Virus record (IMG/VR): IMGVR_UViG_3300035145_002457
Span: 20,587-84,586 of that record
From: a virus
Strand: one strand, 5' to 3'
DNA length: 64,000 nt
Below, piece by piece: positions 15,711 through 49,137 of the stretch. The number at the start of each line of letters is the position of its first letter. Position 1 is the first letter of the stretch. The translations under genes and the position numbers were made by a program. The notes under the pieces were generated by a model. It ran no database searches and was not told the DNA's origin. It saw only the letters and a program-made list of their open reading frames with translations.

Positions 15711-15728
15711 CTTTAAAAAGGATAGAAA

Positions 15729-16652: not shown

Positions 16653-16655
16653 GAC

Positions 16656-16684
16656 TTGACAAATTGGTAAAATTGTTATATACT
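16656..16684 (+). promoter_or_regulatory. sigma70-type promoter TTGACA-N17-TATACT
   Basis: TTGACA at 16656-16661, 17-nt spacer, TATACT at 16679-16684. Followed by an AAGGAG SD and the ATG at 16710. Heads the glycosyltransferase/radical SAM block. Confidence 0.75.
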
Positions 16685-16709
16685 TTATGCGTATATACAA
16701 GGAGTTCCA

Positions 16710-17057
16710 ATGGACGAAAGACTAGAAAAAGCATTAGAATTTTCTAAATTTGTTGAGACACAAAACAATCAAAAAACTATTTTTTTGAATCAATTCAAAG
16801 AAAATCTAATACACTATACCCATGGACATAAATTTACAGCAACTCAACAGCTGATTACATTTGTATCTGTGATTGTTGAATCAGGAGAAGACACTGCAAT
16901 CATTCTAGATGACAATAACCTACCTGTTCTTATTGAAGATTTAAAAGGCTTTATGAGAGAATTAGTTGGTGTATATGTTTTTGCATCACGAAAATATGCT
17001 AAAGATTACAACGATATCAAGACGCATAGATCAGTTGAAGGGCTAACAAATTTATGA
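16710..17057 (+). CDS. Hypothetical protein, 115 aa (possibly tail-assembly related)
   Basis: Strong SD and promoter. ATGA overlap with the next gene. Confidence 0.6.
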   Translation: MDERLEKALEFSKFVETQNNQKTIFLNQFKENLIHYTHGHKFTATQQLITFVSVIVESGEDTAIILDDNNLPVLIEDLKGFMRELVGVYVFASRKYAKDYNDIKTHRSVEGLTNL

Positions 17058-17902
17058 CAAATGGTGTATTGCTATTTGCATTCAACAACGAAACTATTGA
17101 TTATGTAAAACAGGCTGTTTACTGTGCTAAACAGATTAAGCGGCATCTTGACTTGCCTGTACAAATAGTAACAAACGCTGTAGATTACATCGAAACAGAA
17201 TTTCCTTTTTATAAAAAATATATAGAACACGTTACTTATTCACCCGCCCCGGTTGGAGCGTCAAAGACTTTTTATGATGGCATTTATCATAATAAAAAAT
17301 TGACCTGGAAAAATAGCCTTCGTGATAGTGCTTATGATTTAACATTATTTGATAAAACACTTGTATTAGATACAGATTTACTTGTAGGTAATAATAAATT
17401 GTTAAAATGTTTTAATACAAATGAAGATTTTATGATTGCCAAAGATTACAATATGGTTAATACTACAAAACAAATTGAAGGATTTGATAGGGTTAGTGAT
17501 AGAACAATTCCAATGTATTGGGCAACCATACTTTATTTTACAAAAAGCAAAACAGCAAAAACGGTTTTTGATTTAGCGTCACACATACGAGAAAATTATA
17601 ATTATTACAGACTTGTTTATGATATACAAGAAAGCAAGTTTCGAAATGATTTTGCATTTAGTATTGCTGTTCATATAATGCGTGGTTTTACAGAAACCAC
17701 AGATTGGCCAATGCGATTACCTACAGACATGTGGGTAAGCACTGATAGAGATGTTTTGTTAGAAAATACTGATGGAACAGCAAGATTACTTGCACAACGC
17801 GATTACGACTATCTTCTAGTAAAACTAAACAATGCCACTTTACATGTTATGAATAAATTTAGTTTGAATAAAGTAATTACTGGAGAATTTGAAAATGAGT
17901 AG
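17054..17902 (+). CDS. Glycosyltransferase-like protein (GT-A fold)
   Basis: N-terminal GVLLFAFN beta strand and a DxD motif in KTLVLDTDLLV. Paralog of the next gene. Confidence 0.65.
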   Translation: MTNGVLLFAFNNETIDYVKQAVYCAKQIKRHLDLPVQIVTNAVDYIETEFPFYKKYIEHVTYSPAPVGASKTFYDGIYHNKKLTWKNSLRDSAYDLTLFDKTLVLDTDLLVGNNKLLKCFNTNEDFMIAKDYNMVNTTKQIEGFDRVSDRTIPMYWATILYFTKSKTAKTVFDLASHIRENYNYYRLVYDIQESKFRNDFAFSIAVHIMRGFTETTDWPMRLPTDMWVSTDRDVLLENTDGTARLLAQRDYDYLLVKLNNATLHVMNKFSLNKVITGEFENE

Positions 17903-18719
17903 AGGGTACTTTGTTGTTGCACAGAATAATGCTAAAACAGATTATGTTAGACAAGCATACGCTCTTGCATTAAGTATATTGGCACAGTCGCCTGATGCTA
18001 ACATTAGCGTCATGACCAACGATGATGTACCTACCAAATATAAAAAGGTTTTTGATCAGGTAATTGATATACCTTGGGGAGATTTATCAGAAGACTCAAA
18101 ATGGAAAATTAACAACAGATGGAAAATATATCATAGAACGCCGTATAGGCAAACAACAGTATTTGATACTGACATGCTAGTTTTAGATAATTTAGATTAT
18201 ACGTGGACTAGTTTACAGCATGTGTCTTACCATTTTACTAAAGATGTACTTACTTACAGGCAAGAACCTGTAACATCACGTTACTATAGGAAAGCATTTG
18301 ATGCAAACAATCTTCCTAATCCATATGTAGCAATGTTTCAGTTCAATAAATCAAATGAAACAAAAGAATTTTTTGTGTTACTAGAAATTATAATGAAAAA
18401 TTGGAAAATTTTTTACAGTAAATATGCACCTAATAGTATGCAAAATTGGTGTAGTGTTGATATGTGTGCCGCTATAGCTCTAAAAATACTTGGTACTGCT
18501 AATATATCTGTAAATAATAACAACATGCTATCTTTTGTTCATTTAAAATCACATGCACAAAATTTGTCTAATCCTTTAATCAAATCCACTGACTTAACGT
18601 GTGATGTTGGAGATACAGGATTATTTTTAAATGGATACAAACAAAAAGGTGTGCTTCATTATGTTGATGATGAATTTTTGACAGATGAAATAATTGACTG
18701 GTTAGAGGAACAAGTGTAA
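17895..18719 (+). CDS. Glycosyltransferase-like protein (GT-A fold, GT8-like)
   Basis: YVRQAYALALSI, TPYRQTTVFDTDMLV (DxD) and a C-terminal LHY. ATG at 17895 follows a GGAG SD. Confidence 0.65.
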   Translation: MSRGYFVVAQNNAKTDYVRQAYALALSILAQSPDANISVMTNDDVPTKYKKVFDQVIDIPWGDLSEDSKWKINNRWKIYHRTPYRQTTVFDTDMLVLDNLDYTWTSLQHVSYHFTKDVLTYRQEPVTSRYYRKAFDANNLPNPYVAMFQFNKSNETKEFFVLLEIIMKNWKIFYSKYAPNSMQNWCSVDMCAAIALKILGTANISVNNNNMLSFVHLKSHAQNLSNPLIKSTDLTCDVGDTGLFLNGYKQKGVLHYVDDEFLTDEIIDWLEEQV

Positions 18720-19267
18720 TGTTATATGTGCAATATGACGATGATGGAAGAATACTTTCTGTAACCAATGAATATGATCCAGCTATTTCAAGTTTAGAAG
18801 TTGACTTAGAGACTTATGAAGCATTCAGCAACGGAACAAGAATGTTAGCTGAATACCAAGTTGTTGAAGATTATCACCAAAAAGGAAAAATGCATCTTGT
18901 AAATGTAAATGTAGAGCAAGATGGTTATATTGATCAAGAAAAGGGAATTGTGTCAAAAAAAGATATTACAAAAGAAGGTATAATATTTGAACAACTCGAC
19001 AAATGCTGGCACATACACAATCATTTGAGTGGTCCAATACCTACACTAATTAATTTAGGAACAGATTATTTTAGGGAATATTACATAGTAGAAGCACGTA
19101 ATAGATTTGTGCTGTTAGATACTATTGTTATAGACATGAAAGAATTAGTTAACACAGACAAATTAGTTGTACAAGGACACTCTGCAGATAAAGAAGTAAG
19201 TATTGTGTGTTTTGAAAGTAGACTTAGACACAGACACAAGGTAGGAAAACAAAATGCGTATAATTGA
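18719..19267 (+). CDS. Hypothetical protein, 182 aa
   Basis: Coupled to both neighbours by overlaps; no recognisable motif. Confidence 0.6.
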   Translation: MLYVQYDDDGRILSVTNEYDPAISSLEVDLETYEAFSNGTRMLAEYQVVEDYHQKGKMHLVNVNVEQDGYIDQEKGIVSKKDITKEGIIFEQLDKCWHIHNHLSGPIPTLINLGTDYFREYYIVEARNRFVLLDTIVIDMKELVNTDKLVVQGHSADKEVSIVCFESRLRHRHKVGKQNAYN

Positions 19268-20168
19268 TTACGATATTATATATTTAAGTTATGACGAACC
19301 TAATGCAGAAAAAAATTATGCAGATTTGGTAAGCAAAGTTCCTTGGGCAAAACGTATACATGGAGTTGAAGGATCAGACGCGGCACACAAGGCTTGTGCA
19401 AAACTTGCAGAAACAGATAGATTTATCACTGTGGATGCAGACAATATTATTAATCCTAAGTTTTTAGAGCAAGAGTTAGACATACCTAAGGATAGTGACT
19501 TAGAGCACAGTGTTATTAGTTGGTGTGGTAGGAACATAATAAATGGACTGATGTATGGTAACGGCGGATTAAAATGTTGGCCAAAAGAATATGTATTAAA
19601 CATGCGTACACATGAAAATGCAGACCCTGATAATCCTCAAGCACAAGTTGATTTTTGTTGGGATCTAAAGTACCTACAGCAAAATAGTTGTTATTCAGAT
19701 GTGTATAACAATGCAACACCTCAGCAGGCCTGGAGAGCAGGGTTTCGTGAAGGTGTTAAGATGGCACTAGATCAAGGTGTGAAGCCAACAGTTGAAAACT
19801 TCTTACAAGGACATTGGAAAAATTTGCATAGACTTTGGATTTGGTTAATGATTGGCTCTGATGTTGAAAATGGTCTATGGGCTATCTACGGCGCAAGAGA
19901 AGGCTTAGTTAAAACAATGTTAACTGATTGGGATTATGTCAATGTAAGAGATTTTGAATATCTCAATAATTTATGGAAAGAAAAAGAATCTGTAGACTCT
20001 AAAATGTTATTAGAAGCAATAGAAATACTAGGTGCTTCATTAATAGATAATTTGGATATACCTATAGGACAAATGCCGTTAGACGAACAGCAAAGTAAAT
20101 TTTTCAAAACAGTTTACCAAAATCCTAGCCGTAACCCTAAACAACAATTTGTGATTGATCCAGAATGA
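19254..20168 (+). CDS. Glycosyltransferase-like protein (GT-A fold)
   Basis: DIIYLSYDEPNAE, RIHGVEG..AAH, FITVDAD (DxD), YGNGGLK and AWRAGFRE. Paralog of 21504. Confidence 0.6.
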   Translation: MRIIDYDIIYLSYDEPNAEKNYADLVSKVPWAKRIHGVEGSDAAHKACAKLAETDRFITVDADNIINPKFLEQELDIPKDSDLEHSVISWCGRNIINGLMYGNGGLKCWPKEYVLNMRTHENADPDNPQAQVDFCWDLKYLQQNSCYSDVYNNATPQQAWRAGFREGVKMALDQGVKPTVENFLQGHWKNLHRLWIWLMIGSDVENGLWAIYGAREGLVKTMLTDWDYVNVRDFEYLNNLWKEKESVDSKMLLEAIEILGASLIDNLDIPIGQMPLDEQQSKFFKTVYQNPSRNPKQQFVIDPE

Positions 20169-21511
20169 TTGAATTTAAAGATATAAAAGATGAATTAGAT
20201 CAAGTAGGGTGCGGATTTTGCCTTGCAAAATGGTCGCAGGTTACAATACATTTGGCATCAGGTATTAACCATAGTTGTCATCATGTTGCGGCTCATAAAA
20301 TTCCGTTAGATGAACTTGCAAAAAATCCTAATGCTTTGCACAATACACAGTTTAAGAAAAATCAAAGACGTATGATGTTGAAAAATCAACGTCCGCCGGA
20401 GTGTGATTATTGTTGGAGAATAGAAGACAACACAAATGAGTATAGTGACAGGGTAATTAAGAGCAGTGCAAAGTGGAGTCAGATTGACAAAGAAAAAATT
20501 ATTGCAAGTGATTGGATGGATGACATATATCCAAGGTATGTAGAAATAAGTTTTTCAAATGTATGTAATTTTAAATGTGCATATTGCGGCCCGCCTTTCA
20601 GTAGTAAGTGGGCAGAAGAAATAAAGCAACATGGATTTTACAAACTTAAAAGAAAACCCTACAATAGGATAAGAGAAGAAGAAGTTCCTATTCCTGAACG
20701 TGAAGAAAATCCTTATATTGATGCTTTTTGGAAATGGTTTCCTGAAGCTGTTAAGCATATGCTTGTGTTTAGAATAACAGGCGGTGAGCCTTTGCTTAGT
20801 AAACACACTAAAAAAGTTATTCAGTATCTTAGAGACAACCCACAACCTCAATTAGAATTTGCTATTAACACAAATGCTTGTCCACCAGATAAACTTTGGG
20901 AAGAATTTGTTGATAGTATACGCGAATTAGAAGAAAATAATTGTGTTAAAAATTTCCAACTTTATACAAGTGCTGAAAGTTTTGGAAAACAAGCAGAGTA
21001 TGTTAGGTATGGAATGAATTTTAAACTTTTTGAAAAAAATCTAAAATATTTTATAAAAAATACACATAAAGCAAGAGTATTTTTTATGAGTGCATTTAAC
21101 ATATTAAGTTTACCAACACTTATTCCGTATTTGCGTTTTCTTGTGTCTATGAAAAGAATGAAAGAAAACACAGTGTTTGTAGATTGGGCGTATGTAAGGC
21201 ATCCTGAATTTTTAGACATAAAGGTAGCAGATAAACAGTTGATAGAAAAATACTTAGAGCCTGCACTAGATTTTATGAAAGAACGTAAAAAGAACTCTAA
21301 TAGATTTATGGATCACGAAATATGGAAACTAAAAAGGATATATGAAGACTGTTTGACTAACCTTTCTAGAGAAAATGATTATACACTTGAGTATTGTCAA
21401 TTTTGGCAATTTGTAAATGAATATGACAAAAGGCGAGGCACAAATTTCTTAGAAACATTTCCTGAATTCAAGAATTTTTATAAAAAGTGTGGAGTATATG
21501 CCAATGTATGA
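20165..21511 (+). CDS. Radical SAM enzyme with N-terminal twitch domain (subfamily A)
   Basis: CNFKCAYC (Cx3Cx2C) and ITGGEP. N-terminal FCLAKW...SCHH...ECDYCW. Confidence 0.9.
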   Translation: MIEFKDIKDELDQVGCGFCLAKWSQVTIHLASGINHSCHHVAAHKIPLDELAKNPNALHNTQFKKNQRRMMLKNQRPPECDYCWRIEDNTNEYSDRVIKSSAKWSQIDKEKIIASDWMDDIYPRYVEISFSNVCNFKCAYCGPPFSSKWAEEIKQHGFYKLKRKPYNRIREEEVPIPEREENPYIDAFWKWFPEAVKHMLVFRITGGEPLLSKHTKKVIQYLRDNPQPQLEFAINTNACPPDKLWEEFVDSIRELEENNCVKNFQLYTSAESFGKQAEYVRYGMNFKLFEKNLKYFIKNTHKARVFFMSAFNILSLPTLIPYLRFLVSMKRMKENTVFVDWAYVRHPEFLDIKVADKQLIEKYLEPALDFMKERKKNSNRFMDHEIWKLKRIYEDCLTNLSRENDYTLEYCQFWQFVNEYDKRRGTNFLETFPEFKNFYKKCGVYANV

Positions 21512-22187
21512 TATTGCTTTTATAAGTTATAATGAAAAAGAAGCTGATCAAAACTGGGAAAAATTATCAACAAAGTATCCTTATGCAAAACGCACACACG
21601 GAGTAAAAGGTATACACCAAGCACATATCGCCGCGGCAAATAAAGCAGTAACACCTATGGTATGGTTTGTAGATGCAGATGCTTATATAGAAGATGATTT
21701 TGATTTTAGTTATATCCCACCAAGGAAGGACCGTGATGCTGTACATGTTTGGCGTAGTCGTAACCCTATTAATGATTTAGTTTATGGATATGGTGGTGTT
21801 AAACTATTCCCAAGGATTGCAACTACAAAAGTGGATGTTAATAAACCTGACATGACTACAAGCATAAGTGAAAAATTTATAGCTATGCCTGAAATAAGCA
21901 ATACCACTGCTTTTAATGTAGATCCATTTAGTACTTGGCGCAGTGCATTTAGGGAATGTGCAAAATTAGCAAGCAAAATAATTGATAGACAAAGGGAGGA
22001 TGAAACAGATGAAAGACTCAAGACTTGGACAACCGTGGGACACGATAGAGAGTTTGGTGAATATGCGATTAGAGGTGCTCATGACGGTATGGAGTTTGGC
22101 CTTTCTAGGGGGTCTGATCTTCGGTTAATTAATGATTACAAATGGTTAAAGGAACAGTTTGATGAAAACCCAAGAATTATTAGATAG
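21504..22187 (+). CDS. Glycosyltransferase-like protein (GT-A fold)
   Basis: YDIAFISYNE, HGVKGIHQAH, WFVDAD (DxD), YGYGGVKL and TWRSAFRE. The ATG at 21504 is 9 nt after GGAG. Confidence 0.6.
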   Translation: MYDIAFISYNEKEADQNWEKLSTKYPYAKRTHGVKGIHQAHIAAANKAVTPMVWFVDADAYIEDDFDFSYIPPRKDRDAVHVWRSRNPINDLVYGYGGVKLFPRIATTKVDVNKPDMTTSISEKFIAMPEISNTTAFNVDPFSTWRSAFRECAKLASKIIDRQREDETDERLKTWTTVGHDREFGEYAIRGAHDGMEFGLSRGSDLRLINDYKWLKEQFDENPRIIR

Positions 22188-23070
22188 ATACGAACTGTTA
22201 TATCCGAAAAATACATATATTTCAGATTTACGCAGAGCATATATTGATAAAGATATCAGTAGTATATTTAGATTGCTTCCTGATACTGTTAACGGCACAA
22301 AAGATGATTTACGTAAAGCAGTTTTAGAAAACAATTTACACAGTATATTTAGATTATGCGAAAATGATAATTTAAGAAAATTATTGCTTGAAGATAATGT
22401 TTGGAAGCTCTGGCCGTTACTTGAAAAATATGTGGACACCCATTTTACCTCAGCATTCAAAAGATTTTTTGCAGAGAATATTAAAATTAACAATCATTGT
22501 TTTAGCAGAGGTCAACTACAAAGTAAATTATGGTTAATCGAGGAACTCGAGAACACAGGAGTTGATCTTGGTACTGTGTTTATTTGTGCAGGATGGTATG
22601 CTACACTTGCTACTATGATTTTTGAAAGCAATATGAACGTAGAAAAAATACGTAGCTTTGACATTGACTCAAGTTGTGCTGGAGTTGCTGAAATATTTAA
22701 CAAACCTTGGGTAAAGGATGATTGGCAATTTAAAGCATGTACACAGGATATAATGGAAATTGAATGGCAAGGACATAACTATCCTGTTAAACGTAATGAC
22801 GGCAGTATTTGTATGCTATATGATTCACCAGATACAATAATTAACACTAGTTGCGAACACATAAAAGACTTTGATACATGGTTTAGAAAAATACCTGAAG
22901 GTAAACTTATATGTTTACAGAGCAATAATTACGTTGCCCTGGAAGAACATGTAAATTGTGTAAAAGATAGTTTACATTTTGAAGAAATGACACCATTTAG
23001 TAAAGTATTGTTTACAGGAGAATTGCCGTTAGAAAAATACACGAGGTATATGAGAATTGGAATTAAGTAA
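22162..23070 (+). CDS. Class I SAM-dependent methyltransferase-like protein with N-terminal helical repeats
   Basis: VFICAGWY (degenerate motif I), IRSFDID and DTIINTSCEH. Repeated DLR...S IFRL units at the N-terminus. Confidence 0.55.
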   Translation: MKTQELLDRYELLYPKNTYISDLRRAYIDKDISSIFRLLPDTVNGTKDDLRKAVLENNLHSIFRLCENDNLRKLLLEDNVWKLWPLLEKYVDTHFTSAFKRFFAENIKINNHCFSRGQLQSKLWLIEELENTGVDLGTVFICAGWYATLATMIFESNMNVEKIRSFDIDSSCAGVAEIFNKPWVKDDWQFKACTQDIMEIEWQGHNYPVKRNDGSICMLYDSPDTIINTSCEHIKDFDTWFRKIPEGKLICLQSNNYVALEEHVNCVKDSLHFEEMTPFSKVLFTGELPLEKYTRYMRIGIK

Positions 23071-23281
23071 TCTTACAGTTAGACAATTGCAACAAGAAAG
23101 TGCTAGGGCTTTAAGTACAATGCAAGCTACTAATAATAACATTTATCAGTTTAATAAACAAGCACATCACAACAGCCATAATTGGTATGCGGCTGTTATA
23201 GATTGGTATGTAAAAGAATATGGAGATTTACCTAGCCGTGCAGGCCCTGGAAAAAATGTAAGGTTAGTTTTAGATGAATAA
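23057..23281 (+). CDS. Small hypothetical protein, 74 aa (TTG start)
   Basis: GAGG SD upstream; overlaps both neighbours. Confidence 0.55.
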   Translation: MELSNLTVRQLQQESARALSTMQATNNNIYQFNKQAHHNSHNWYAAVIDWYVKEYGDLPSRAGPGKNVRLVLDE

Positions 23282-26390: not shown

Positions 26391-26398
26391 GTAAGTAT

Positions 26399-27802: not shown

Positions 27803-28392
27803 AGTTAGCAGTATTTGGATGTAGTCATTCGGGATGCGGTCCCAGAGATTGGAATGAAACTTGGCCATATCATTTATACAAAACCACAAAATTAGAAATA
27901 CACAATTTTGCAGTTGGAGGAACTAGTACGCAGTTCCAATACGGGTTTTTTAAAAAACATATTGATAAATTTGATAAATTTATTTTTCAATATACTAGCC
28001 CGTACAGATTTACTGAATATAGAACAATAACTGAACAAAACGGTGATTTACCTACGGATATGGATAAATTTAGAAAATATACGTACTTCGCTCAAGGTAC
28101 AGGTAATTATTTAATATGTAACACATCTGCAAATTTTAACAAAAGATACAAAAGTTGGATAAAAAAAGACAAGGGCGAAATTGAAAAAGAATACAAAAAC
28201 ATTTGCAAAGAAGTAGATGATCATGAAAAATGTTTATTTTCTTTTCATTTTGTTAGAAATCCAACTAATGTAAAAGGTATAGAAATTATGCAAAACAATT
28301 TCCCTGAGATTATACCGAATCCAAATATACATCTTAGTAGCGAAGAAAATAAGATTATTGCAAACTATATAAAGGAAAAATGTAACCTATGA
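27799..28392 (+). CDS. SGNH/GDSL-hydrolase-like protein
   Basis: MKLAVFGCSHS (GDS-like block I), NFAVGGTS (block II) and C-terminal HLSSEENKIIANYI. ATG at 27799 follows AAGGA. Confidence 0.55.
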   Translation: MKLAVFGCSHSGCGPRDWNETWPYHLYKTTKLEIHNFAVGGTSTQFQYGFFKKHIDKFDKFIFQYTSPYRFTEYRTITEQNGDLPTDMDKFRKYTYFAQGTGNYLICNTSANFNKRYKSWIKKDKGEIEKEYKNICKEVDDHEKCLFSFHFVRNPTNVKGIEIMQNNFPEIIPNPNIHLSSEENKIIANYIKEKCNL

Positions 28393-31289: not shown

Positions 31290-31290
31290 G

Positions 31291-37913: not shown

Positions 37914-37917
37914 TAAA

Positions 37918-41329: not shown

Positions 41330-41334
41330 AAATA

Positions 41335-41342
41335 TATTTATA
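41335..41342 (-). promoter_or_regulatory. T4-like late promoter TATAAATA, 5 nt upstream of the ATG (probably leaderless)
   Basis: + strand TATTTATA at 41335-41342, ATG at 41329, no SD in between. Confidence 0.6.
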
Positions 41343-41359
41343 TACGTGGTTTATTTGTC

Positions 41360-41388
41360 TTGCAAAACTGGTGTTAAGGTGCTATAAT
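41360..41388 (+). promoter_or_regulatory. sigma70-type promoter TTGCAA-N17-TATAAT with extended -10
   Basis: TTGCAA at 41360-41365 and TATAAT at 41383-41388 preceded by TG. The ATG at 41394 has no SD. Confidence 0.65.
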
Positions 41389-41393
41389 ATATT

Positions 41394-42515
41394 ATGAATG
41401 AAGACTTAAAATGGAGCAATTATGACTTCTCTAAGATCCCTTTTGATGACATTGTCAGTGTGGGTCAACGGACTTTGCTTTATCGTGATATTTTTACTGT
41501 ATCATGGCTACTTGGAAGGTTCTGTAACTACAGATGCTCCTACTGCTGGCCTTATGCCAGAAGCGATCGTAAAGACCACCGTCCTACCGAGCTCTGCTTG
41601 CTTACAGTGGATGAAATCAAACGTCAAGCTAGACTCAACGGTTTCAATTCTTTCCACTTCTCCTTGTCAGGAGGAGAACCTACTTTCCATCCTGGATACT
41701 TGGACATACTAAAGCATCTAGCAGATGATGTAGCAAATACAAATTATACTAGTATACACATGACTAGTAATTGTAGTCGTCCTATGAAATGGTTTAAAAC
41801 GTATGTTGAATATGCAAAGCCCTTTCATAGAGCAAGTATAACAGCAAGTCTGCACACAGAACATGTAAATACAAAGGAGAAGATGCAGGATTTTGCAGAC
41901 AAACTAATCTTGTGTCAAGAGCATGATGTACAAATTACAATCAATCAAGTTATGGTTCCAGAATGGTTTGAAAGAGATTGGGAAAACGCTTTATTCTTTC
42001 ACGAGCAAGGAATCAATGTCACACTCAAGCCTCAATCGGATCCGACTGCGTCAAGGGTGGTTGATGGATACACTGGGGATCAACTTAAAAAACTTTACAA
42101 CGGCATGCCACAAAGAGCATACACAGAAAGCAAACGTAAATGGCAAGAAAGACCTAAACCGTCATTCGAAGTACCTAAAGGAATAATGGGTAAAAATGAT
42201 GCAAGTGTGCCTTGGCACATGCAAGTAGAATTAAAAGACTCTAAAGGTAAAAAGTGGTATATGGACCAAGCAGAACGCTTTAATGCCTTTAATTTCAACA
42301 ATTTTGAAGGATGGCGGTGTAACGCCGGTTTTAGCGGAATAATAATACGGGAGCCTGACGGTTCGGTAAAAAGGAGTTATTCTTGCCATGATGCACCCCT
42401 TGGTAACATAGAAACAGGTTTTAACCTATTTAAAGAGCCAAAAAAATGTATTACAAAAAGTTGCGTAAGTAGTGCTGATAGTAAAATACCTAAAGTAAAA
42501 AATGGAAACATATAG
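41394..42515 (+). CDS. Radical SAM enzyme with C-terminal twitch/SPASM-like domain (subfamily C)
   Basis: CNYRCSYC and LSGGEPT. C-terminal GWRCNAG...YSC...KCITKSC. Confidence 0.9.
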   Translation: MNEDLKWSNYDFSKIPFDDIVSVGQRTLLYRDIFTVSWLLGRFCNYRCSYCWPYARSDRKDHRPTELCLLTVDEIKRQARLNGFNSFHFSLSGGEPTFHPGYLDILKHLADDVANTNYTSIHMTSNCSRPMKWFKTYVEYAKPFHRASITASLHTEHVNTKEKMQDFADKLILCQEHDVQITINQVMVPEWFERDWENALFFHEQGINVTLKPQSDPTASRVVDGYTGDQLKKLYNGMPQRAYTESKRKWQERPKPSFEVPKGIMGKNDASVPWHMQVELKDSKGKKWYMDQAERFNAFNFNNFEGWRCNAGFSGIIIREPDGSVKRSYSCHDAPLGNIETGFNLFKEPKKCITKSCVSSADSKIPKVKNGNI

Positions 42516-43320
42516 TATATTAAGTTATAATCGTACTGGTAGTACAGTAGTAGGACAATGCCTGGCAGGTCATTTTGGCCAAGAATATCAAGCAGAAATT
42601 ACAAATATTCCTAGTGTATTAATGCGTTATGATGACAACGGAAATGATATAAATGTCCCTTTTAAAAAACCATTACCTGAAGGTACCTATGTAAAAACAT
42701 ATGAGATACAAGAAGGATATGTTAAAAGATATTTAGAATTTGACAATCCGGAACCATTTATATTTGGTACATCACGTTTTACAAAAGAAGTAGAAAAAAG
42801 AAAAAAATTATTAAAATATAATTGTAAAAGCAAAAACAAAAGTATTTTTAAAATTCAACCGCAAAGTTTTATGGAAAATTTTAATGAACCTAAAATACTT
42901 GATGGATATAGATTCATTTTTTGTGCTAGACGTGATATTAGAGAACAAATATTAAGTTACCTAGTAGCAATGGAAACAAGATTATTTCATATTGGCTATA
43001 ATGATCAAATTATACATCTTGATAAAATAACAATAAAACGTAAATATTTTGATTTTTGTTTAGAAGGATTAAAACTTACCAACAAATTATTTGAATATTA
43101 CAAATCAACTAACCAAATTGGTAAAATTATATTTTATGAAGACTGGCAAGATGATGTATCTAAAGTGCTTCCATTATTAGGATTCAAACATACCCCAACA
43201 AAAACCTTTAAAAAGATAAAATATAGTGTAGGTTCTAAACATAATCTTGTAAATAATTTAGAACAAGTATACAAATGGATGGATAATGCAGAAGAATTTA
43301 ATTACACCTATAGACTTTAA
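42502..43320 (+). CDS. Sulfotransferase-like protein (P-loop PAPS-binding fold)
   Basis: ILSYNRTGSTVV (5'-PSB motif), FCARRDIREQILSY (3'-PB motif) and IFYED. Confidence 0.65.
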   Translation: METYSILSYNRTGSTVVGQCLAGHFGQEYQAEITNIPSVLMRYDDNGNDINVPFKKPLPEGTYVKTYEIQEGYVKRYLEFDNPEPFIFGTSRFTKEVEKRKKLLKYNCKSKNKSIFKIQPQSFMENFNEPKILDGYRFIFCARRDIREQILSYLVAMETRLFHIGYNDQIIHLDKITIKRKYFDFCLEGLKLTNKLFEYYKSTNQIGKIIFYEDWQDDVSKVLPLLGFKHTPTKTFKKIKYSVGSKHNLVNNLEQVYKWMDNAEEFNYTYRL

Positions 43321-43810
43321 AGTTGACATAGAACGATTGAAATATGATAGTGCAAAGGCTATCGAAACATTTCCGTTTAACAATCATAACCAAATTTGCT
43401 TTGTTAATACTTCGGGTGATAATTTGGATCCATATGAAGGGACAGGAGATAGTAGATTAAGTCATTGTCCTATGTACGGACTTAAAGAAGAAGATTTTAA
43501 TATATTCAACACTGCATTTAATGATACAATATTTGAAGAAATTTGTCAGCACTTTCCTTTTCAAATGGGTAGAATACGTTTAATGAAAGTTCCTGCAAAA
43601 AAATGCTACTGGATGCATAATGATCCTGGAATGGTACGCTATCATTTTGCAGTAGAAACAAACGAAGATTGCTTTATCTTATACAGAGATCATGGACATT
43701 ACCACATTCCTGCTGACGGAGTATGTTACCGTATGAACACTGATGAACATCATACTGCGGTAAATGCTAGTAGAGAAGATAGAATACATTTGGTTATCAG
43801 TGGATTATGA
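43286..43810 (+). CDS. Asp/Asn beta-hydroxylase-like 2OG-Fe(II) oxygenase
   Basis: RIRLMKV....YWMHND (HxD)...RYHFAVETN...HIPADG...NTDEHHTAVN...DRIHLV. Confidence 0.7.
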   Translation: MQKNLITPIDFKVDIERLKYDSAKAIETFPFNNHNQICFVNTSGDNLDPYEGTGDSRLSHCPMYGLKEEDFNIFNTAFNDTIFEEICQHFPFQMGRIRLMKVPAKKCYWMHNDPGMVRYHFAVETNEDCFILYRDHGHYHIPADGVCYRMNTDEHHTAVNASREDRIHLVISGL

Positions 43811-44265
43811 TTACATTTGATACTTGGCATACAGCAAGACATAAAGTGTCTGCATTTGAAGAATATAAAATTGTAAATAATTTATTAAAAGAATTTGCAG
43901 ATTGCAGGGCAAAAGACATAAACATATGTCAACCTAAGTTTAAGGATTGTTATTATAATAAGAAGTGGCATCTAGAATTTAGTAGGCACCCTATTGACAT
44001 ATACGAATATAGTTTTAATTGCCTTAGAGTGTATTTGGCATATAATCATGAAGAAGTCGAGAATGCAAAATTTTTTAGAAGCATAGATTTATTTTTTAAA
44101 TACCTTAAGGTTCATTTTAAATTAGAAAAACGCGAATGGCTAGATAAAATGTATGCGTATGCACAAGAAAGTGATCATCATAAAGCTCCTACGTTTATAA
44201 AAAATATGGATCAGTATTTTAAAAAATTGCACATAATGGATGAAATGAAATGTTTGATAAAGTAG
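43807..44265 (+). CDS. Hypothetical protein, 152 aa
   Basis: Overlaps both neighbours; no motif recognised. Confidence 0.55.
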   Translation: MITFDTWHTARHKVSAFEEYKIVNNLLKEFADCRAKDINICQPKFKDCYYNKKWHLEFSRHPIDIYEYSFNCLRVYLAYNHEEVENAKFFRSIDLFFKYLKVHFKLEKREWLDKMYAYAQESDHHKAPTFIKNMDQYFKKLHIMDEMKCLIK

Positions 44266-44954
44266 AAGTAAAAGAAACACATATGTGGTTTACCCCTGCA
44301 AGATTAGAAAGGCACTTACCTCTTTTGATAATGAGCCATGGTAGCGGAGGTATAAGTGATATTGATATCGACTTTGCGAAACTTGCTTGCTCAGAAGGAT
44401 ATCAAGTTGCCATTATAGATCATTTTACAAAAAGGAATGTAAAAAGCCAGTTATGGCATGATGTGGAAAATATATATCCTAGTTTTGCTGATAGAGCAGT
44501 TGATATTTACACTGTAGCAAAACAATACAATACAGACAAAAAAATATTGTTTGGAATAAGTGCCGGGGGTACAGCATGTCTATTATGTAGTAAAGATTTC
44601 GATAAAACATTTCTTGCTTATCCTGCACTAATTGGTATAACAAGTCCTATGCTAGAAGCCAAAAATGTAACCATAGTCACAGGAAAAGATGATAATTGGA
44701 CACCACCAGACCAAGCAAAAAGATATGCAAAACATGTAGATTGTGATTTACATATTATAGATGGTCATCATGGATTTTTGAATCCGCGTGAAAACAGACA
44801 ATTAGATAATGTAATAAGTTTGCGTAATGTTAATCTACCAATACCTTTTGAAGGCACATTAAATGAAATAAAATATGAAAAAGGTGTGACAGCAAAATAC
44901 AATGTTGACAGTAGAATTTATACCGAAAATTTATTTGTTAAATGGCTATCTTAG
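44250..44954 (+). CDS. Alpha/beta hydrolase (dienelactone-hydrolase-like)
   Basis: SHGSGG, GISAGG (GxSxG nucleophile), GKDDNWTP (Asp) and GHHGF (His). Confidence 0.75.
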   Translation: MFDKVEVKETHMWFTPARLERHLPLLIMSHGSGGISDIDIDFAKLACSEGYQVAIIDHFTKRNVKSQLWHDVENIYPSFADRAVDIYTVAKQYNTDKKILFGISAGGTACLLCSKDFDKTFLAYPALIGITSPMLEAKNVTIVTGKDDNWTPPDQAKRYAKHVDCDLHIIDGHHGFLNPRENRQLDNVISLRNVNLPIPFEGTLNEIKYEKGVTAKYNVDSRIYTENLFVKWLS

Positions 44955-45602
44955 ACGCTGTATACGTGCTTTTTGCGTGTGTGCGTAGGTTTTATTATAC
45001 TCCGCTATGTTGATACTCGGAAGGCTAAAAGGCGCTTGTACGGCGCTTATAAGCTGTGTAAAGCATACATTTTGCCAGCAATTAGGGTCTTGATTAACCC
45101 CTATAAAATCACCATTATCGTTGTGTTGTCTGCAGGTATTACACATATTTTCATGTAAAATCCAAGGACGTTTTTGGTTTAAATAAGCAACTAGATCTTG
45201 CATACTTCTTCTACGCATTAGCAATTCTATGCTGATAAAAGCATATTCGTATCCTAATTCAATTGCTTTAGAAACTTCAAATGGTACAAACCAATCTTCG
45301 CTCCATCTTGCTTTTCTGCTACTTCCTTTGTTTCTATAGTCTGGATGATAGTATGTTCTAGTGCAACACCTTGCAATGTTTTTTGGATAAGATCCGTTGT
45401 TCCATAATCCGCTAAATGCAACAATTTTATCATCATCATAAATTATTTCAAAACTATCAAATTTATGTACAGTTTTGTCTAAATCAAAATAATTTTTTGC
45501 ATTACGATGATTGTCGTTTGCTTCTATCCATTTACTTATTTTTTGTAAATTTTCTTTGTGCTTTTCAAAATCTTCAGATTCTAAAATGTTAATTATTTCC
45601 AT
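44946..45602 (-). CDS. GNAT-like acetyltransferase (tentative)
   Basis: IIYDDDKIVAFSGL...ARCCTRTYYHPDYRNKG resembles GNAT motif A. The ATG at 45602 overlaps the stop of the dehydrogenase. Confidence 0.45.
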   Translation of the reverse strand: MEIINILESEDFEKHKENLQKISKWIEANDNHRNAKNYFDLDKTVHKFDSFEIIYDDDKIVAFSGLWNNGSYPKNIARCCTRTYYHPDYRNKGSSRKARWSEDWFVPFEVSKAIELGYEYAFISIELLMRRRSMQDLVAYLNQKRPWILHENMCNTCRQHNDNGDFIGVNQDPNCWQNVCFTQLISAVQAPFSLPSINIAEYNKTYAHTQKARIQRLR

Positions 45603-46650
45603 AATTATTCCACGGATTAAAATTGTAAACACCTTCCATAGGTTTATCAGTCGGATGTACTTGTACATAAACAGAAGGCGAATCTTTTACAATCCAACCT
45701 CCGTGTTGTTTTACATAATGCTGTACCAATAGACTGTAACTCCCATCAGTTAGTTCTGTGTTTGGCTTATAACTGTCTGTGCTAAACATTACTTTATTGC
45801 CATATTTTAATATTTCAATAGCCATATTTTCTGCTTGTTTTTCTCTTGCTACAGTTATAGCACCAAAAAGATCATATTGCAAGTTTAATTTTTTTGCTAA
45901 ATCACTAAGTGCAATGTTGTCTCTAGGGTGACAAGGTCCTCCATCGCCCATGCCTGCTTTCATATATGCTTTACTTGTAATCCTTTTGGTACTTTCAGCA
46001 AGCGCCTCTGTCACAACGTCTACATTCATGTTACCTAATTTTACTGCAACATCTTGGATCATGTTTACGATTGATAATTTTGCACTTATAAATGTATTAT
46101 AAAAAACTTTTATACTTTCTGCTTCCTCATATGTTCCTTCAACATATCTTGCTCTTGACGTAACCGTTTCATAAAAATTTTTCAATGTGCTTTTGCCGCC
46201 TATGATTATCATTTCAGGATTTGCAAAATCTTCTTGAACTGTACCCATTGCTATCAAATATGGGTTGTATACAAAGTTTGTATTTGACACTAGTTTTTTT
46301 AATTTTCTACATGTGCCAGGTAATACTGTGCTTATCAAAACTAGTTCTTGTTTTTTGTTCATATATTTGTTACATTCTTGTAAAACTTTTTCAACGATGC
46401 TGTAATCAAAATCTTTTGTAGGCAAATGACTAGTAGGCATACTGCCATCATATTCTTTTACATGAGGAGTAGGAACTGCAACAAATACATAGTCACATCC
46501 TGATACTGCTCCTGCTATATTAGGAAATTGGAATACGCCTTTTGTGTTGCGTTTTACAATATCATATGCATTGACACTATGCCCTTTTTTAGCACAATAT
46601 TCCGCACAAGGTAAACCTAGTTTACCTAAACCTATAAATGCAATATTCAT
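45589..46650 (-). CDS. ugd: UDP-glucose/GDP-mannose dehydrogenase family protein
   Basis: IAFIGLGKLGLP, VAVPTP, ISTVLPGT, AESIKVFYNTFIS.K and GMGDGGPCHPRD (catalytic Cys). Short C-terminal domain. Confidence 0.8.
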   Translation of the reverse strand: MNIAFIGLGKLGLPCAEYCAKKGHSVNAYDIVKRNTKGVFQFPNIAGAVSGCDYVFVAVPTPHVKEYDGSMPTSHLPTKDFDYSIVEKVLQECNKYMNKKQELVLISTVLPGTCRKLKKLVSNTNFVYNPYLIAMGTVQEDFANPEMIIIGGKSTLKNFYETVTSRARYVEGTYEEAESIKVFYNTFISAKLSIVNMIQDVAVKLGNMNVDVVTEALAESTKRITSKAYMKAGMGDGGPCHPRDNIALSDLAKKLNLQYDLFGAITVAREKQAENMAIEILKYGNKVMFSTDSYKPNTELTDGSYSLLVQHYVKQHGGWIVKDSPSVYVQVHPTDKPMEGVYNFNPWNNYGNN

Positions 46651-46668
46651 TAATTGTCCTTTGTCTAA

Positions 46669-46690
46669 GATAAGTACTACTATTACTTAT
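46669..46690. promoter_or_regulatory. Pair of oppositely oriented late-like motifs (ATAAGTA) in a divergent gap
   Basis: GATAAGTA at 46669-46676 (+, towards 46702) and ATAAGTA at 46684-46690 (-, towards ugd). Confidence 0.35.
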
Positions 46691-46701
46691 TAAGGTGTTA
46701 G

Positions 46702-47682
46702 ATGATAGATATTAGACGTGAAAAAATGTTTGCAGATGATGTATACGTGCTTGACCACATAAAGGCATTAGACAAACAGAATGTATCATTTATCAATGAT
46801 AAAGATTACATTTTACAAGTTTATAAGAAAAAACTTAACAAAGCAAAAAAGAATAGCAAATATAAACATTTTGCATTTTATGCGGCAACAGACGGATGGA
46901 CAGAAATATTTGATTCGTTTGTAAAGAAAAATAATCTAATACCTTTCACAGGAAATTTAAATTGTAAAGATTGGATTTGGTTCCCGCATTGGCTAGTCGT
47001 TACTGACAGCATAGATCCATTACCTTGTTCAAAAACAGTTCCAGATTATCGCTGGCATTTTTGGGTAAGGAGGCCAAGGCCACATAGAATAGAACTACTC
47101 AAAAACTTTTCAGATTTGAATATTAACAACGGAGAAATTGTATTTCCAAAAAAACTAGTTGAGCCTACAGGTAGAGTTTATCCTAGTACAAAACAATTGT
47201 TTGGAAATGATAGACTGTACGATAACATTAGTGACAGATTAAATTTACCAATTGATATTGAAGTAGGCACAAATGGAGCATATGTTCCCGGTTTTGAATT
47301 GAGACAAAAACGTGCAATTGATATTGTAACCGAGACAATGTACTCAAACGAAGGAGGCATATTCATAAGTGAAAAAACATTTAAGCCTATACGAGCAGGA
47401 CAGTTGTTTGTTGTACTAGGACAAAAAGGCACTGTAAAAAGTTTGCATAATTACGGATTCAAAACTTTTAATAAATGGATAGATCATTCATACGATGATG
47501 TTGAGGATATGCCTACTAAAGCAAAAATGATAGCTAATGAAATATCGAGGATAAGCAACTTATCACATTCTGATTTTTTACAAATGTGGGTTGAAACTTA
47601 TGCTGATAGAAAGCATAACCAAACTTATAAGAATTATAAATTAGATTATTGGAAAAAATACCTAAATAGTTTCTTTGTTTGA
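46702..47682 (+). CDS. Putative glycosyltransferase-like protein (paralog of 23274)
   Basis: RRPRPHR...IDIVTET...FISEKTFKPI...GFKTFNKWIDHSYD. Confidence 0.5.
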   Translation: MIDIRREKMFADDVYVLDHIKALDKQNVSFINDKDYILQVYKKKLNKAKKNSKYKHFAFYAATDGWTEIFDSFVKKNNLIPFTGNLNCKDWIWFPHWLVVTDSIDPLPCSKTVPDYRWHFWVRRPRPHRIELLKNFSDLNINNGEIVFPKKLVEPTGRVYPSTKQLFGNDRLYDNISDRLNLPIDIEVGTNGAYVPGFELRQKRAIDIVTETMYSNEGGIFISEKTFKPIRAGQLFVVLGQKGTVKSLHNYGFKTFNKWIDHSYDDVEDMPTKAKMIANEISRISNLSHSDFLQMWVETYADRKHNQTYKNYKLDYWKKYLNSFFV

Positions 47683-49137
47683 TTTGAGATTTTCATACAA
47701 TGTTGATAAAGTTGTTAATGGCCATCTAACCATATATCCTAATTCTTCACATTTTTCTTGAGCAATGATTCTACGTCTTGCTCTTTCTCTAAAAGTTAAA
47801 GAAGGATTTTTAGTAGAATACCAATTGTTGTTTTCGTCATATTCTATACCCCAATGTGCAAGGTTTTCACCTATCGGAGATCCTGGTAACACAACCATTG
47901 TTTTACCTAGGTTGACACCGCTAATTGTTCCTTGCTCATTGTAAGGAGAAAGTCTATCTAGCAATGATAATGTTTGGTCAAAGTCATTGTCTGTTTCAGT
48001 AGGATAGCCTACAATCATTAACATATCACATTGTATTCCGTATTTGGTAAGCATAGCAATAGTAAAGTCTATATCATCATTGGAAAGTTTTTTACCCATA
48101 TCATGCATCACTGCTTCACTTCCGCTTTCGATACCAATATGCAATTGTTTTGCACCAGCTTCTTTCATTTTTCCAAACCATTCTTCTGTAAATTGATGTA
48201 TTGGCCGACATATAAACTGGCCACTCCATACAACATCTTTAATTTTTCCAGAACGTTTTGCTTTTACCATGGCATTTAAAAAATCTTCGAATGCTTTTAA
48301 ACTTCCGTTAATCAAACTGTCTGTAAAATAAAATTCTGTGCTACCAAATTTTTCATTATGAAAAACTATTTCGTCTGCTAAACTTTGCCCACTACGATAT
48401 CTAAAATGTTTCCATGCACTTTTAATATCACAAAAAGTACAATTACGAACACAGCCTCTACTGCCTGTAATAGCTACTGCTGAATTTTTATTTGCATATT
48501 TTGTAAAATCGAAATCGCTGTAATCAGGATTTGGTAATTCATCGAGGTTGTCTATTTGAGAATATCCTTTATAGTCTTTACCTTGCAGTAATGCAACAAG
48601 ACTTTTCTCACCTTCTCCTGTTATGTAAGTGTCTGCTAGTTTTGTGTCTACCATAAAGTCACCAAAATTGCTTGCACCACTTATACCAAATGTACTAACA
48701 CCCGGGCCACCTAACATAATCTTTTTGTCTGCTTTTGATTTAATAGTTTCACATAAGTCAATAGTATACAATACACTGTTCACACTTAGTACACTTACAC
48801 CCACCCATTCTGTGTTTAAACTTATAATATGATCAGCCCAATAGTTTAGATGTTTTTTATATAGTTTTAGTGTTTCTTTTGATAATGTATTTTTTTGTTG
48901 TAGTAAAGGTTGTAGGTTCAAACTGTCTTGTGTTATGTATCGAAAGTCAGTTTGAAAATATGAGTCTATTTCTTTGTAATTATCGAATTTTTGTTTTAGA
49001 TCTGTGTAAAGTTCTATGTTAAGATCGATTGTATGACATGTAAAACCTGCGTTTTCCACACAAGGCTTTAAAGCCGCTAGTGCAGGACTGGGCATATGAT
49101 TAGCCGTACGGGGAGAAGCAACTAGTGTCAAACTCAT
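47662..49137 (-). CDS. Cobalamin-binding-domain radical SAM enzyme (class B methylase-like)
   Basis: N-terminal P.PALAALK...DLN...WVGVSV...IMLGGP. Then GSRGCVRNCTFC, FYFTDS, IGIESGS and MIVGYPTET. Confidence 0.85.
   Translation of the reverse strand: MSLTLVASPRTANHMPSPALAALKPCVENAGFTCHTIDLNIELYTDLKQKFDNYKEIDSYFQTDFRYITQDSLNLQPLLQQKNTLSKETLKLYKKHLNYWADHIISLNTEWVGVSVLSVNSVLYTIDLCETIKSKADKKIMLGGPGVSTFGISGASNFGDFMVDTKLADTYITGEGEKSLVALLQGKDYKGYSQIDNLDELPNPDYSDFDFTKYANKNSAVAITGSRGCVRNCTFCDIKSAWKHFRYRSGQSLADEIVFHNEKFGSTEFYFTDSLINGSLKAFEDFLNAMVKAKRSGKIKDVVWSGQFICRPIHQFTEEWFGKMKEAGAKQLHIGIESGSEAVMHDMGKKLSNDDIDFTIAMLTKYGIQCDMLMIVGYPTETDNDFDQTLSLLDRLSPYNEQGTISGVNLGKTMVVLPGSPIGENLAHWGIEYDENNNWYSTKNPSLTFRERARRRIIAQEKCEELGYMVRWPLTTLSTLYENLKSNKETI

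Follow-up and report, generated by a model that had tools for sequence, protein, structure and literature searches.

Fifteen radical SAM genes beside the fiber genes of a jumbo phage: a possible glycan-tailoring island

What would a bacteriophage do with 15 radical S-adenosylmethionine (SAM) enzymes, encoded together next to its tail fibers? We re-analyze a 64,000-nucleotide stretch of viral DNA (hereafter, the window), bases 20587-84586 of the linear 84.6-kb IMG/VR record IMGVR_UViG_3300035145_002457 (CheckV completeness 21%), in which such an island occupies positions 16656-49137. An earlier note on this DNA had read the island as a phage pathway that builds a glycan and diversifies it by radical chemistry. 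Our analysis shows that the island is genuine phage DNA, and an origin by assembly chimerism is rejected. As to function, a virus-encoded glycan pathway built on uncharacterized radical SAM families is the best available, if unproven, reading of what these genes may encode.

Sugar-acting radical SAM enzymes are known singly from antibiotic pathways. BtrN, BlsE, and SpeY belong to aminoglycoside or nucleoside antibiotic pathways, and NeoN and HygY are related enzymes with an auxiliary "twitch" domain that act on sugars or cyclitols. Here, 10-23 distinct radical SAM genes are found per phage operon, beside genes with a glycosyltransferase fold (the GT-A type) and tail fibers. If the glycan reading is true, the operons would hold a large untapped set of C-H functionalizing carbohydrate enzymes, and they could explain the strong variation of the fiber region among aquatic jumbo phages.

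Radical SAM families and their bacterial counterparts

All 15 open reading frames (ORFs) that the earlier note had assigned to the radical SAM enzymes carry the CX3CX2C motif, and all match PF04055 at E <= 7.6e-5, with 11 of the 15 exceeding the gathering score (a genome-wide scan at E <= 0.001 gives 14 matches). Two of them, at 40193-41329 and 47662-49137, lie on the minus strand. The further claim that 14 have an extra cysteine-rich domain is right in its count and needs a correction: the domain takes the usual C-terminal place in only six and is N-terminal in the other eight (the seven N_Twi genes described below and 29710; genes are named by their lower coordinate in Table 1). It resembles a single-cluster twitch domain rather than a complete SPASM domain. 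The paralogs share only 20-35% identity with each other.

Seven genes (20165, 26399, 28389, 31291, 34402, 36804, and 40193(-)) match the NCBIfam family NF033640 (N_Twi_rSAM, hereafter N_Twi) nearly end to end, at 176-423 bits against a curated cut-off of 170 bits. This is a catalogued family without an assigned function, and a full-text literature search for the N_Twi names found no paper on it. In an alignment of 69 N_Twi sequences, C69 is invariant and C7, C25, and C72 are conserved in at least 90%, all of them preceding C116/C120/C123; in the SAM-binding GGE-type motif, G171 and E172 never vary, and at least 90% of the sequences keep G170. Pfam SPASM covers residues 6-96 in five of the seven window genes, four of them above the cut-off.

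Two further classes stay below the NF033640 cut-off (28-46 bits), and none of their members reaches any curated NCBIfam cut-off. In class A1 (25323, 33297, 37900), the domain at the C-terminus shows a conserved PC(C) motif together with a CxxxC pair, and the SAM-binding motif takes the variant form G..GD(P). Class A2 (24407, 39027, 41394) has the motif CN[YF]xCSYC, an invariant GGEP, and four invariant C-terminal cysteines. Gene 29710 (21 bits for NF033640) is short and combines an A1-type core (28-30% identity) with a cysteine cluster at the N-terminus. The last gene, 47662(-), matches PF04055 at 63.4 bits and PF02310 at E 6e-4 (20 bits versus a cut-off of 32.1), and its ten best NCBIfam matches are all B12-binding radical SAM families, each below its own cut-off. 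Since the auxiliary domains of N_Twi, A1, and A2 have about four conserved cysteines each, they would hold one extra cluster (twitch); the 7-8 cysteines and two auxiliary [4Fe-4S] clusters of a full SPASM domain were not seen in the alignments of any of the three. The sole long direct-repeat families of the window (25746-25882, 33714-33850, and 38368-38504) are conserved motifs of paralogous radical SAM genes, with 66-71% DNA identity.

In a quick maximum-likelihood tree (LG+G4, with SH-aLRT support only), the seven window N_Twi genes fall in seven places, none of them sister to another window copy, and for five of the seven the clade is supported at 95% or more and mixes viral sequences with sequences from Bdellovibrionota, the predatory bacteria. 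This placement argues that the paralogs are old, distinct orthogroups moving together between phages and bacteria, and not recent duplicates. The system is widespread: NF033640 is found above its cut-off in 45 of 201 sampled Bdellovibrionota genomes versus 0 of 14 control genomes, and the core GT-A family has at least 8000 database proteins at E <= 0.001. Eighteen N_Twi copies were found in one 3.9-Mb Bdellovibrionales metagenome-assembled genome (MAG; G001, 12 contigs) and three in another genome (G002); elsewhere in the wider Bdellovibrionota sample there are up to 11 copies per genome and arrays of 5-7. A single 24-kb contig of G001 (C25; 52% guanine-cytosine, GC) holds nine radical SAM genes, whose best window matches are eight different radical SAM genes at 24-62% identity, seven of them at 36% or more. 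The same contig has three genes resembling short-chain dehydrogenases/reductases (SDR), a homolog of 22159 (hhalign E 1.6e-41), two glycosyltransferases of family GT2, an NTP_transferase+Hexapep protein of the sugar-1-phosphate nucleotidyltransferase type, and an APH-family kinase.

Glycosyltransferases recur near the bacterial genes. The 4 kb around bacterial genes with the radical SAM motif encode 103 proteins, whose commonest families include GT2 (three), GT1 (three), methyltransferases (three), carbamoyltransferase (two), ABC and ABC-2 transporters, flagellin (two), and DegT (one). In five further genomes, an N_Twi gene is found no more than 10 kb from 14 of 57 GT2 genes (1.8 expected) and from 5 of 43 GT1 genes (1.3 expected). 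Seen by locus, a Pfam glycosyltransferase occurs within that distance at 11 of the 20 N_Twi loci (12 of 20 if the phage-type GT-A protein is counted). The phage-type GT-A family occurs in two of these five genomes, with all four copies within 10 kb of an N_Twi gene and one of them 86 nt away, inside a seven-gene array.

On another contig of G001 (C10; L024, 6213-8335), two flagellin genes stand directly beside two N_Twi and two class-A-like radical SAM genes. The idea of flagellin glycosylation that this raised was rejected, as 0 of 37 flagellin genes in the five other genomes lie within 10 kb of an N_Twi gene.

Phage origin, spread, and setting of the island

The phage origin supposed by the earlier note is borne out. 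GC content is uniform (0.28-0.37 in the island versus 0.32-0.41 in the flanks), and contigs of two other studies bridge the fiber genes and the island with zero differences (14313-22052 in X1 and 14292-19316 in X4). Two related records carry the island at the same site, between fiber genes: in one (G003, 179.6 kb), the genes to the right of the island are matched at 51-84% identity, and in the other (G005), the genes to its left are matched, with a counterpart of the giant structural ORF in the same position. The gp46-like and ATPase proteins of the record are 44-52% identical to those of PA5oct-like Pseudomonas jumbo phages and Sinorhizobium phage Phosso. Because of the uniform GC, the bridging contigs, this synteny, and the jumbo-phage-like proteins, the record is best described as a jumbo-phage fragment and a chimeric bacterial fragment is excluded; the core cassette of the island is, moreover, present in a phage isolate (below).

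The island also recurs in public sequencing data: 11 runs contain at least half of the sampled words from a 10-kb island piece, which has 20 matching run rows from 12 studies in all. When the island and the flank to its right were compared at the nucleotide level with 50,697 phage records, there were zero matches. Over 9000-28999, metagenome contigs of X1, X4, X8, and X9 show many variants at 90-95% identity and numerous joints with short sides, one of which (23155 to 25916, sides < 30 nt) was seen in three runs. This suggests co-occurring relatives that differ in cassette content, with the proviso that the sides of the joints are too short for trust.

At the protein level, the island was found at 20 IMG/VR loci. 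Homologs of 19254, 21489, 25323, 26399, and 31291 are present in all 20 and 22159 in 18; 28389 is present in all 20 because it was the query. The related records have 23, 22, 20, 13, and 10 PF04055 matches, which puts the 15 of the window in mid-range; two of the records (G003 and G004) score identically in every row, probably represent a single phage type, and were counted once. The isolate is the Ralstonia phage RsoM2USA (343.8 kb), in which the core cassette follows a fiber-like gene in the same order: 16710-like, 17054-like, 17889-like, GT-A (47% identical), N_Twi (39%, the ortholog of 20165), GT-A (44%), and 22159-like. The cassette spans ORFs 346-354 of this phage, with the N_Twi gene as ORF349 and the two GT-A-like genes as ORFs 348 and 350. 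In the available part of its published description, the cassette genes are unannotated, and neither radical SAM nor virion glycosylation is mentioned. Since this phage carries a core cassette with a single radical SAM gene, the function of the system is testable in culture.

A pelagimyophage identity, prompted by PMC7029224 and a contig in a "Rickettsiales" MAG, was considered and found unsupported, as the nearest isolates for two proteins are the PA5oct-like phages and Phosso. The contig (L021 = L005, 46,940 bases) comes from a related phage with the island and is deposited twice, in IMG/VR and inside a MAG labeled "Rickettsiales bacterium"; composition was probably the basis of this binning, and the contig is therefore a weak host hint at most.

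Within the window, fiber genes lie on both sides of the island and the genes are densely packed, both as the earlier note had described. A plus-strand run leads from the giant structural ORF through three paralogous fiber genes (a Collar domain in 9846-12236; paralogs 12233 and 14191) into the island, the end of which abuts a minus-strand fiber gene with an Mtd_N domain (49165-50397). Genes are co-oriented over 9227-40205, and the island has just one intergenic gap > 65 nt. The motif TATAAATA occurs twice in the 64-kb window versus 12.2 times expected from shuffles, once just upstream of the start of 15729 and once just upstream of that of the inverted radical SAM gene 40193(-), a pattern that is consistent with putative T4-type late promoters and counter-selection of the motif elsewhere. 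A diversity-generating retroelement around the Mtd_N fiber was considered and dropped: the window has no direct repeat resembling a template/variable repeat pair (reverse transcriptase was not searched for). Further right, the minus strand at 51933-59019 encodes a 453-amino-acid (aa) HNH endonuclease (phrog_1314), an AAA ATPase (phrog_1297), an exonuclease (phrog_107), and a GTP cyclohydrolase (phrog_2197).

Candidate product and competing explanations

What do the enzymes themselves resemble? Positions 7-81 of the N_Twi profile align to residues 184-257 of BtrN, its twitch domain (E 3.9e-6), and the core of the profile aligns with SkfB, the radical SAM structure 8vpo, the sugar-nucleoside enzyme BlsE, CteB, and viperin. 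Among solved structures, class A1 is matched best by SkfB and BlsE; for class A2, the first nine matches are viperin or viperin-like (E 1e-13 to 2.5e-11), with GDGT-MAS and MoaA next. Nucleotides are the substrates of the viperins and of MoaA. The predicted N_Twi structure (mean predicted local distance difference test score, pLDDT, 95.9) has no single nearest fold, with SkfB, BlsE, CteB, viperin, SuiB, MoaA, anSME, and SpeY all at a template-modeling (TM) score of ~0.4 or less. With structural neighbors so mixed, homology leaves the choice between sugar, nucleotide, and peptide substrates unsettled.

The GT-A pair of the core cassette bears on this choice from the side of context. Genes 19254 and 21489 are paralogs (31% identity) with an invariant D-x-D, and D62 and D64 of 21489 are invariant in 22 sequences. 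All 39 Foldseek rows listed for the AlphaFold2 (AF2) model of 21489 (pLDDT 88.8) are GT-A-type glycosyltransferases (best E 1.4e-5), PBCV-1 A64R among them; for the pair, 4 of 120 relatives listed carry a precomputed GT2-clan Pfam domain (PF00535 or PF13641), and there is an Atlas lead of 0.87. A predicted GT-A fold with DxD (GT2 clan) is supported for both. Database relatives of the pair are mostly fused proteins of ~535 aa, with forms of 836 and 910 aa at two viral loci. In the window and in RsoM2USA, the halves are separate and an N_Twi gene stands in between; the gene could have been split by insertion here, or fused elsewhere.

How much of the remaining inventory of the earlier note stands? 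Its nucleotide-sugar dehydrogenase is strongly confirmed (45589(-), Table 1). Of its roughly six glycosyltransferase-like genes, the GT-A pair is upheld by fold and DxD, 46702 and its paralog 23274 have a GT10 Atlas lead only (0.79-0.80), and nothing points that way for 17054 and 17889, which have 1247 metagenomic homologs and no annotation. For 46702 there is a further Atlas lead, a fold match at TM 0.73 to a viral cluster fused with a nucleoside-diphosphate (NDP)-sugar epimerase/dehydratase. The SDR and the nitroreductase are found, but barely above the cut-off and in part (the C-terminal half of 35672 and an N-terminal piece of 30597, residues 8-56), and so, barely, is the Asp/Asn beta-hydroxylase-like gene 43286, the one oxygenase-like gene found where three 2-oxoglutarate (2OG)-Fe(II) oxygenases had been listed. 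The alpha/beta hydrolase is seen weakly (44250, PHROG E 3e-7), and the GNAT-like protein only faintly (44946(-), E 0.055), as the sole match when ten family-less ORFs were scanned against Pfam at a relaxed threshold (E up to 10). Pfam, PHROG, and NCBIfam scans of the island give no match for the claimed sulfotransferase and SGNH enzyme and no curated match for the methyltransferase; the methyltransferase-like motif of 22159 comes from alignment reading only. Searches of 42502, 43807, and 23274 against the PDB with phmmer found nothing under E 0.02. No membrane protein was found in the island, every ORF of which has at most one borderline hydrophobic segment.

One small gene escapes an ORF list made at 80 aa. 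The 53-aa ORF at 23120-23281 fills the sole sizeable gap of the island and is the sole unannotated gap ORF; it is present on 20 of the related locus records at 54-86% identity, evenly conserved and without cysteine, and absent from L004/L016 and the bacterial loci. Its even conservation, with no variable core and no cysteine, led us to reject it as a precursor of a ribosomally synthesized peptide with post-translational modifications (RiPP).

The glycan-tailoring reading is partly and indirectly supported by the BtrN-like twitch domain, the GT-A pair in the core, the GT-A and GT2 genes beside bacterial N_Twi genes, and the gene mix of contig C25. Put as a mechanism, which we consider about as probable to be right as wrong, the island would be a horizontally mobile set of soluble cytoplasmic enzymes that build and radically edit a sugar-containing product, with the GT-A pair attaching it. 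Three parts can be proposed: a conserved core cassette (16710-23281) of four family-less proteins, the split GT-A pair with its N_Twi enzyme, a putative Rossmann-type protein, and the 53-aa protein; a variable run (23274-42515) of 13 further radical SAM enzymes from three old families, each with one presumed twitch-type Fe-S domain, interleaved with small redox-type proteins; and an accessory tail (42502-49137) with the predicted UDP-sugar dehydrogenase, hydroxylase-like and hydrolase-like proteins, and the putative B12-type radical SAM enzyme. Activated sugars would come from the UDP-sugar dehydrogenase and host pools. Each radical SAM orthogroup might then remove a hydrogen from one particular site of a sugar, either nucleotide-activated or transferred beforehand, with oxidation, epimerization, deoxygenation, decarboxylation, or C-methylation as possible outcomes, and the twitch cluster would take up electrons or anchor the substrate, as in BtrN or MoaA. 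The SDR-like, nitroreductase-like, Rossmann-type, and putative B12 radical SAM proteins may add redox and methyl steps, and the GT-A pair would attach the product to an acceptor.

We tentatively favor the phage's own fiber or baseplate proteins as that acceptor, because of the fixed place of the island between fiber genes, its co-orientation with them, and its lack of export machinery; different cassette sets would then yield differently decorated virions, a possibility that we would not call probable. Broader, and rather doubtful as a whole, is the proposal that phages and Bdellovibrionota share a modular toolkit for radical glycan editing, made of dozens of old orthogroups with a single auxiliary cluster, each performing one site-specific functionalization of a sugar C-H bond. 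Phages would mix sets of 1-23 of these beside receptor-binding fibers, and the resulting hyper-modified, lineage-specific virion glycans would tune adsorption or shield the fibers from host defenses. If true, this would give carbohydrate biochemistry a new branch and phage host-range variation a new axis.

Several results weigh against a sugar product. Among the closest solved structures, three peptide maturases (SkfB, CteB, and SuiB) stand level with BlsE, viperin, and MoaA, and since no N_Twi, A1, or A2 enzyme has been characterized, it is context alone that speaks to the substrate class. For the GT-A pair, the Foldseek TM scores of 21489 are only 0.31-0.45, there are zero curated glycosyltransferase profile matches in Pfam, PHROG, and NCBIfam, PDB profile searches with the families of 19254/21489 and of 22159 give 0 matches, and hhalign finds no match between the GT-A-like profile and one bacterial GT2. 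Most accessory genes have no detectable family. In the bacteria, GT2, GT1, and phage-type GT-A genes are all absent from the 10 kb around 8 of the 20 N_Twi loci, one of which is a five-gene array in G049, and the binomial P for the proximity of glycosyltransferase and N_Twi genes overstates its significance because glycosyltransferase genes cluster. Late expression of the island, finally, is putative, being read from gene orientation and the two TATAAATA sites only.

The bacterial neighborhoods could instead point to the host surface, where altered nucleotide-sugar pools or lipid-linked intermediates would change O-antigen or capsule, so that superinfection is blocked or virions are less trapped. 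GT2, GT1, an ABC-2 transporter, carbamoyltransferase, and DegT around bacterial N_Twi genes are typical of surface-polysaccharide clusters, and the portion of PMC7029224 at hand proposes such a role for glycosyltransferases of the pelagimyophage "host recognition cluster". We nevertheless regard this as unlikely for a phage that is related to lytic-type jumbo myoviruses, whose island contains no flippase, polymerase, ligase, or Gtr-type membrane protein and, being co-oriented with the fiber operon, is probably expressed late. Virus glycosyltransferases have reportedly also been found to hypermodify DNA (Pyle and colleagues, 2024), and tailored sugars on phage bases as protection against restriction would find some encouragement in this and in the GTP cyclohydrolase (phrog_2197) 9-15 kb away. 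The cyclohydrolase belongs, however, to a separate module that is encoded on the opposite strand, the island is part of the structural and not the replication region, and the bacterial homologs are in polysaccharide-type neighborhoods, all of which makes DNA hypermodification very improbable.

Two more explanations, both of which we consider quite unlikely, draw on the solved enzymes. Since BtrN, BlsE, and SpeY stem from aminoglycoside or nucleoside antibiotic pathways, the product might be free: a soluble tailored pseudo-sugar, aminocyclitol, or nucleoside-type metabolite, for instance one active against competing phages or cells. The APH-family kinase and the nucleotidyltransferase of the bacterial cluster fit this, as does a cyanophage radical SAM gene that the available part of PMC12801897 places beside "antibiotic synthesis" genes. 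Yet the best-conserved core is the GT-A pair, directly after fiber genes in every phage examined, and the island has no recognizable exporter or resistance gene. Alternatively, the enzymes might act in the manner of RiPP maturases on side chains of fiber residues or of a small precursor (cross-links, epimerization, methylation). The Pfam SPASM matches, the place of SkfB, CteB, and SuiB among the best structural and sequence neighbors, the Asp/Asn beta-hydroxylase-like gene, the adjoining fiber genes, and a conserved 53-aa ORF inside the island can be cited for it. Against it, no PqqD/RRE-type domain match is listed for any of the 15 radical SAM proteins in Pfam or NCBIfam, the 53-aa ORF lacks the features of a precursor, and the bacterial neighborhoods are rich in glycosyltransferases, not in peptidases or precursor genes.

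Table 1 Features of the window around the radical SAM island (window positions)
Feature	Position	Strand	Remarks
Giant structural ORF, 3' part	445-9201	+	~4,960 aa in total; start upstream of window
Three paralogous tail-fiber genes	9846-12236, 12233-14155, 14191-15699	+	Collar domain in first; weak Peptidase_G2 cleavage-domain match in third
307-aa ORF without family match	15729-16652	+	Resembles fiber-like ORF preceding RsoM2USA cassette; TATAAATA at 15695-15702
Core cassette, first part: 16710 (115 aa), paralogs 17054 and 17889, 18719	16710-19267	+	Abundant in aquatic metagenomes; order kept in RsoM2USA
GT-A-like glycosyltransferase-fold protein	19254-20168	+	N-terminal-type half of pair
N_Twi radical SAM	20165-21511	+	316 bits; between two GT-A-like genes; RsoM2USA ortholog in same place, 39% identity
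GT-A-like protein	21489-22187	+	AF2 model, Foldseek, invariant D62 and D64
303-aa conserved protein	22159-23070	+	Rossmann/methyltransferase-like motif (alignment reading only); homolog in Bdellovibrionales cluster
53-aa ORF	23120-23281	+	
378-aa protein without assigned function	23274-24410	+	Paralog of 46702
Class A2 radical SAM	24407-25336	+	CNYSCSYC; C-terminal four-Cys domain
Class A1 radical SAM	25323-26390	+	C-terminal PCC...CxxxC domain; in 20/20 related viral loci
N_Twi radical SAM	26399-27802	+	423 bits; 54% identity to Bdellovibrionales-cluster ortholog
214-aa protein, no family	27748-28392	+	
N_Twi radical SAM	28389-29717	+	284 bits; 107 metagenomic homologs
Short radical SAM	29710-30597	+	A1-type core, N-terminal Cys cluster; not NF033640
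Nitroreductase-like	30597-31289	+	Residues 8-56 only
N_Twi radical SAM	31291-32688	+	363 bits
228-aa protein, no family	32624-33310	+	
Class A1 radical SAM	33297-34409	+	
N_Twi radical SAM	34402-35679	+	284 bits
185-aa SDR-like	35672-36229	+	adh_short C-terminal half; three homologs in bacterial cluster
195-aa protein, no family	36226-36813	+	
N_Twi radical SAM	36804-37913	+	176 bits, barely over cut-off; long tree branch
Class A1 radical SAM	37900-39030	+	Bacterial ortholog 55% identical
Class A2 radical SAM	39027-40205	+	
N_Twi radical SAM	40193-41329	-	324 bits; AF2 pLDDT 95.9; TATAAATA just upstream, 41335-41342(-)
Class A2 radical SAM	41394-42515	+	Bacterial ortholog 62% identical
42502 (272 aa, no family), 43286 (Asp/Asn beta-hydroxylase-like), 43807 (152 aa, no family)	42502-44265	+	43286 of cupin/2OG type
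Alpha/beta hydrolase-like	44250-44954	+	PHROG esterase/lipase E 3e-7; Pfam below cut-off
240-aa protein	44946-45668	-	Faint GNAT hint, E 0.055
UDP-glucose/GDP-mannose dehydrogenase family	45589-46650	-	PF03721 66.8 bits, PF00984 59.7 bits
326-aa protein	46702-47682	+	Atlas leads only
Putative B12-binding-type radical SAM	47662-49137	-	
Fiber protein with Mtd_N domain	49165-50397	-	51% identical counterpart in same place in G003

Comparison with known systems

Radical SAM genes in phages have been noted before. The parts of the two papers at hand mention 12 radical SAM genes in a T4-like marine genome (PMC5332604) and cassettes of such genes in the host recognition cluster of pelagimyophages (PMC7029224), and they do not analyze the families, domain order, bacterial counterparts, or function of these genes. 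Given the marine genome and the 20-23 radical SAM genes of some relatives of the window phage, the array is not exceptional in size, though the earlier note knew of no characterized phage system with so large an array. The phages also differ: those are pelagimyophages and T4-like, and the window phage is nearest to PA5oct-like phages and Phosso (44-52%, gp46-like and ATPase proteins). Our literature searches found no paper joining radical SAM, jumbo phage, and glycosyltransferase, none that was relevant for twitch, nucleotide-sugar, or polysaccharide radical SAM, and no mention of radical SAM in the moraphage paper.

Among catalogued families, NF033640 shares its four-Cys N-terminal domain and CX3CX2C core with 7 of the 15 radical SAM proteins; the other eight (A1, A2, 29710, and the B12 type) are not members. 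RiPP maturation clusters with several radical SAM enzymes, for example those of proteusin pathways, are alike in combining several such enzymes (the B12 type included) with hydroxylase-like and hydrolase-like genes. They differ in that no variable-core precursor or RRE domain was found in the island, and the neighborhood of its bacterial counterparts is glycosyltransferase-rich.

The glycan clusters of viruses, such as that for capsid glycosylation in the chlorovirus PBCV-1 (A64R) and those of mycobacteriophages, for which virion glycosylation was reportedly described by Freeman and colleagues in 2023, resemble the island in placing soluble GT-A-fold and nucleotide-sugar enzymes beside structural genes. 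We know of none reported with radical SAM enzymes. The island has several-fold more radical SAM genes than glycosyltransferase-like ones. With the BtrN-type twitch dehydrogenases and epimerases, finally, it shares one predicted auxiliary domain of the [4Fe-4S] type, which for N_Twi aligns at E 3.9e-6, and SpeY appears in the list of similar folds; in their cores, the enzymes resemble SkfB, BlsE, or viperin at least as closely as BtrN. The BtrN type joins a C-terminal twitch domain to a sugar or cyclitol substrate, and in eight island genes the domain order is reversed. The BtrN type contributes one gene per pathway, whereas the phages described here carry 10-23 each.

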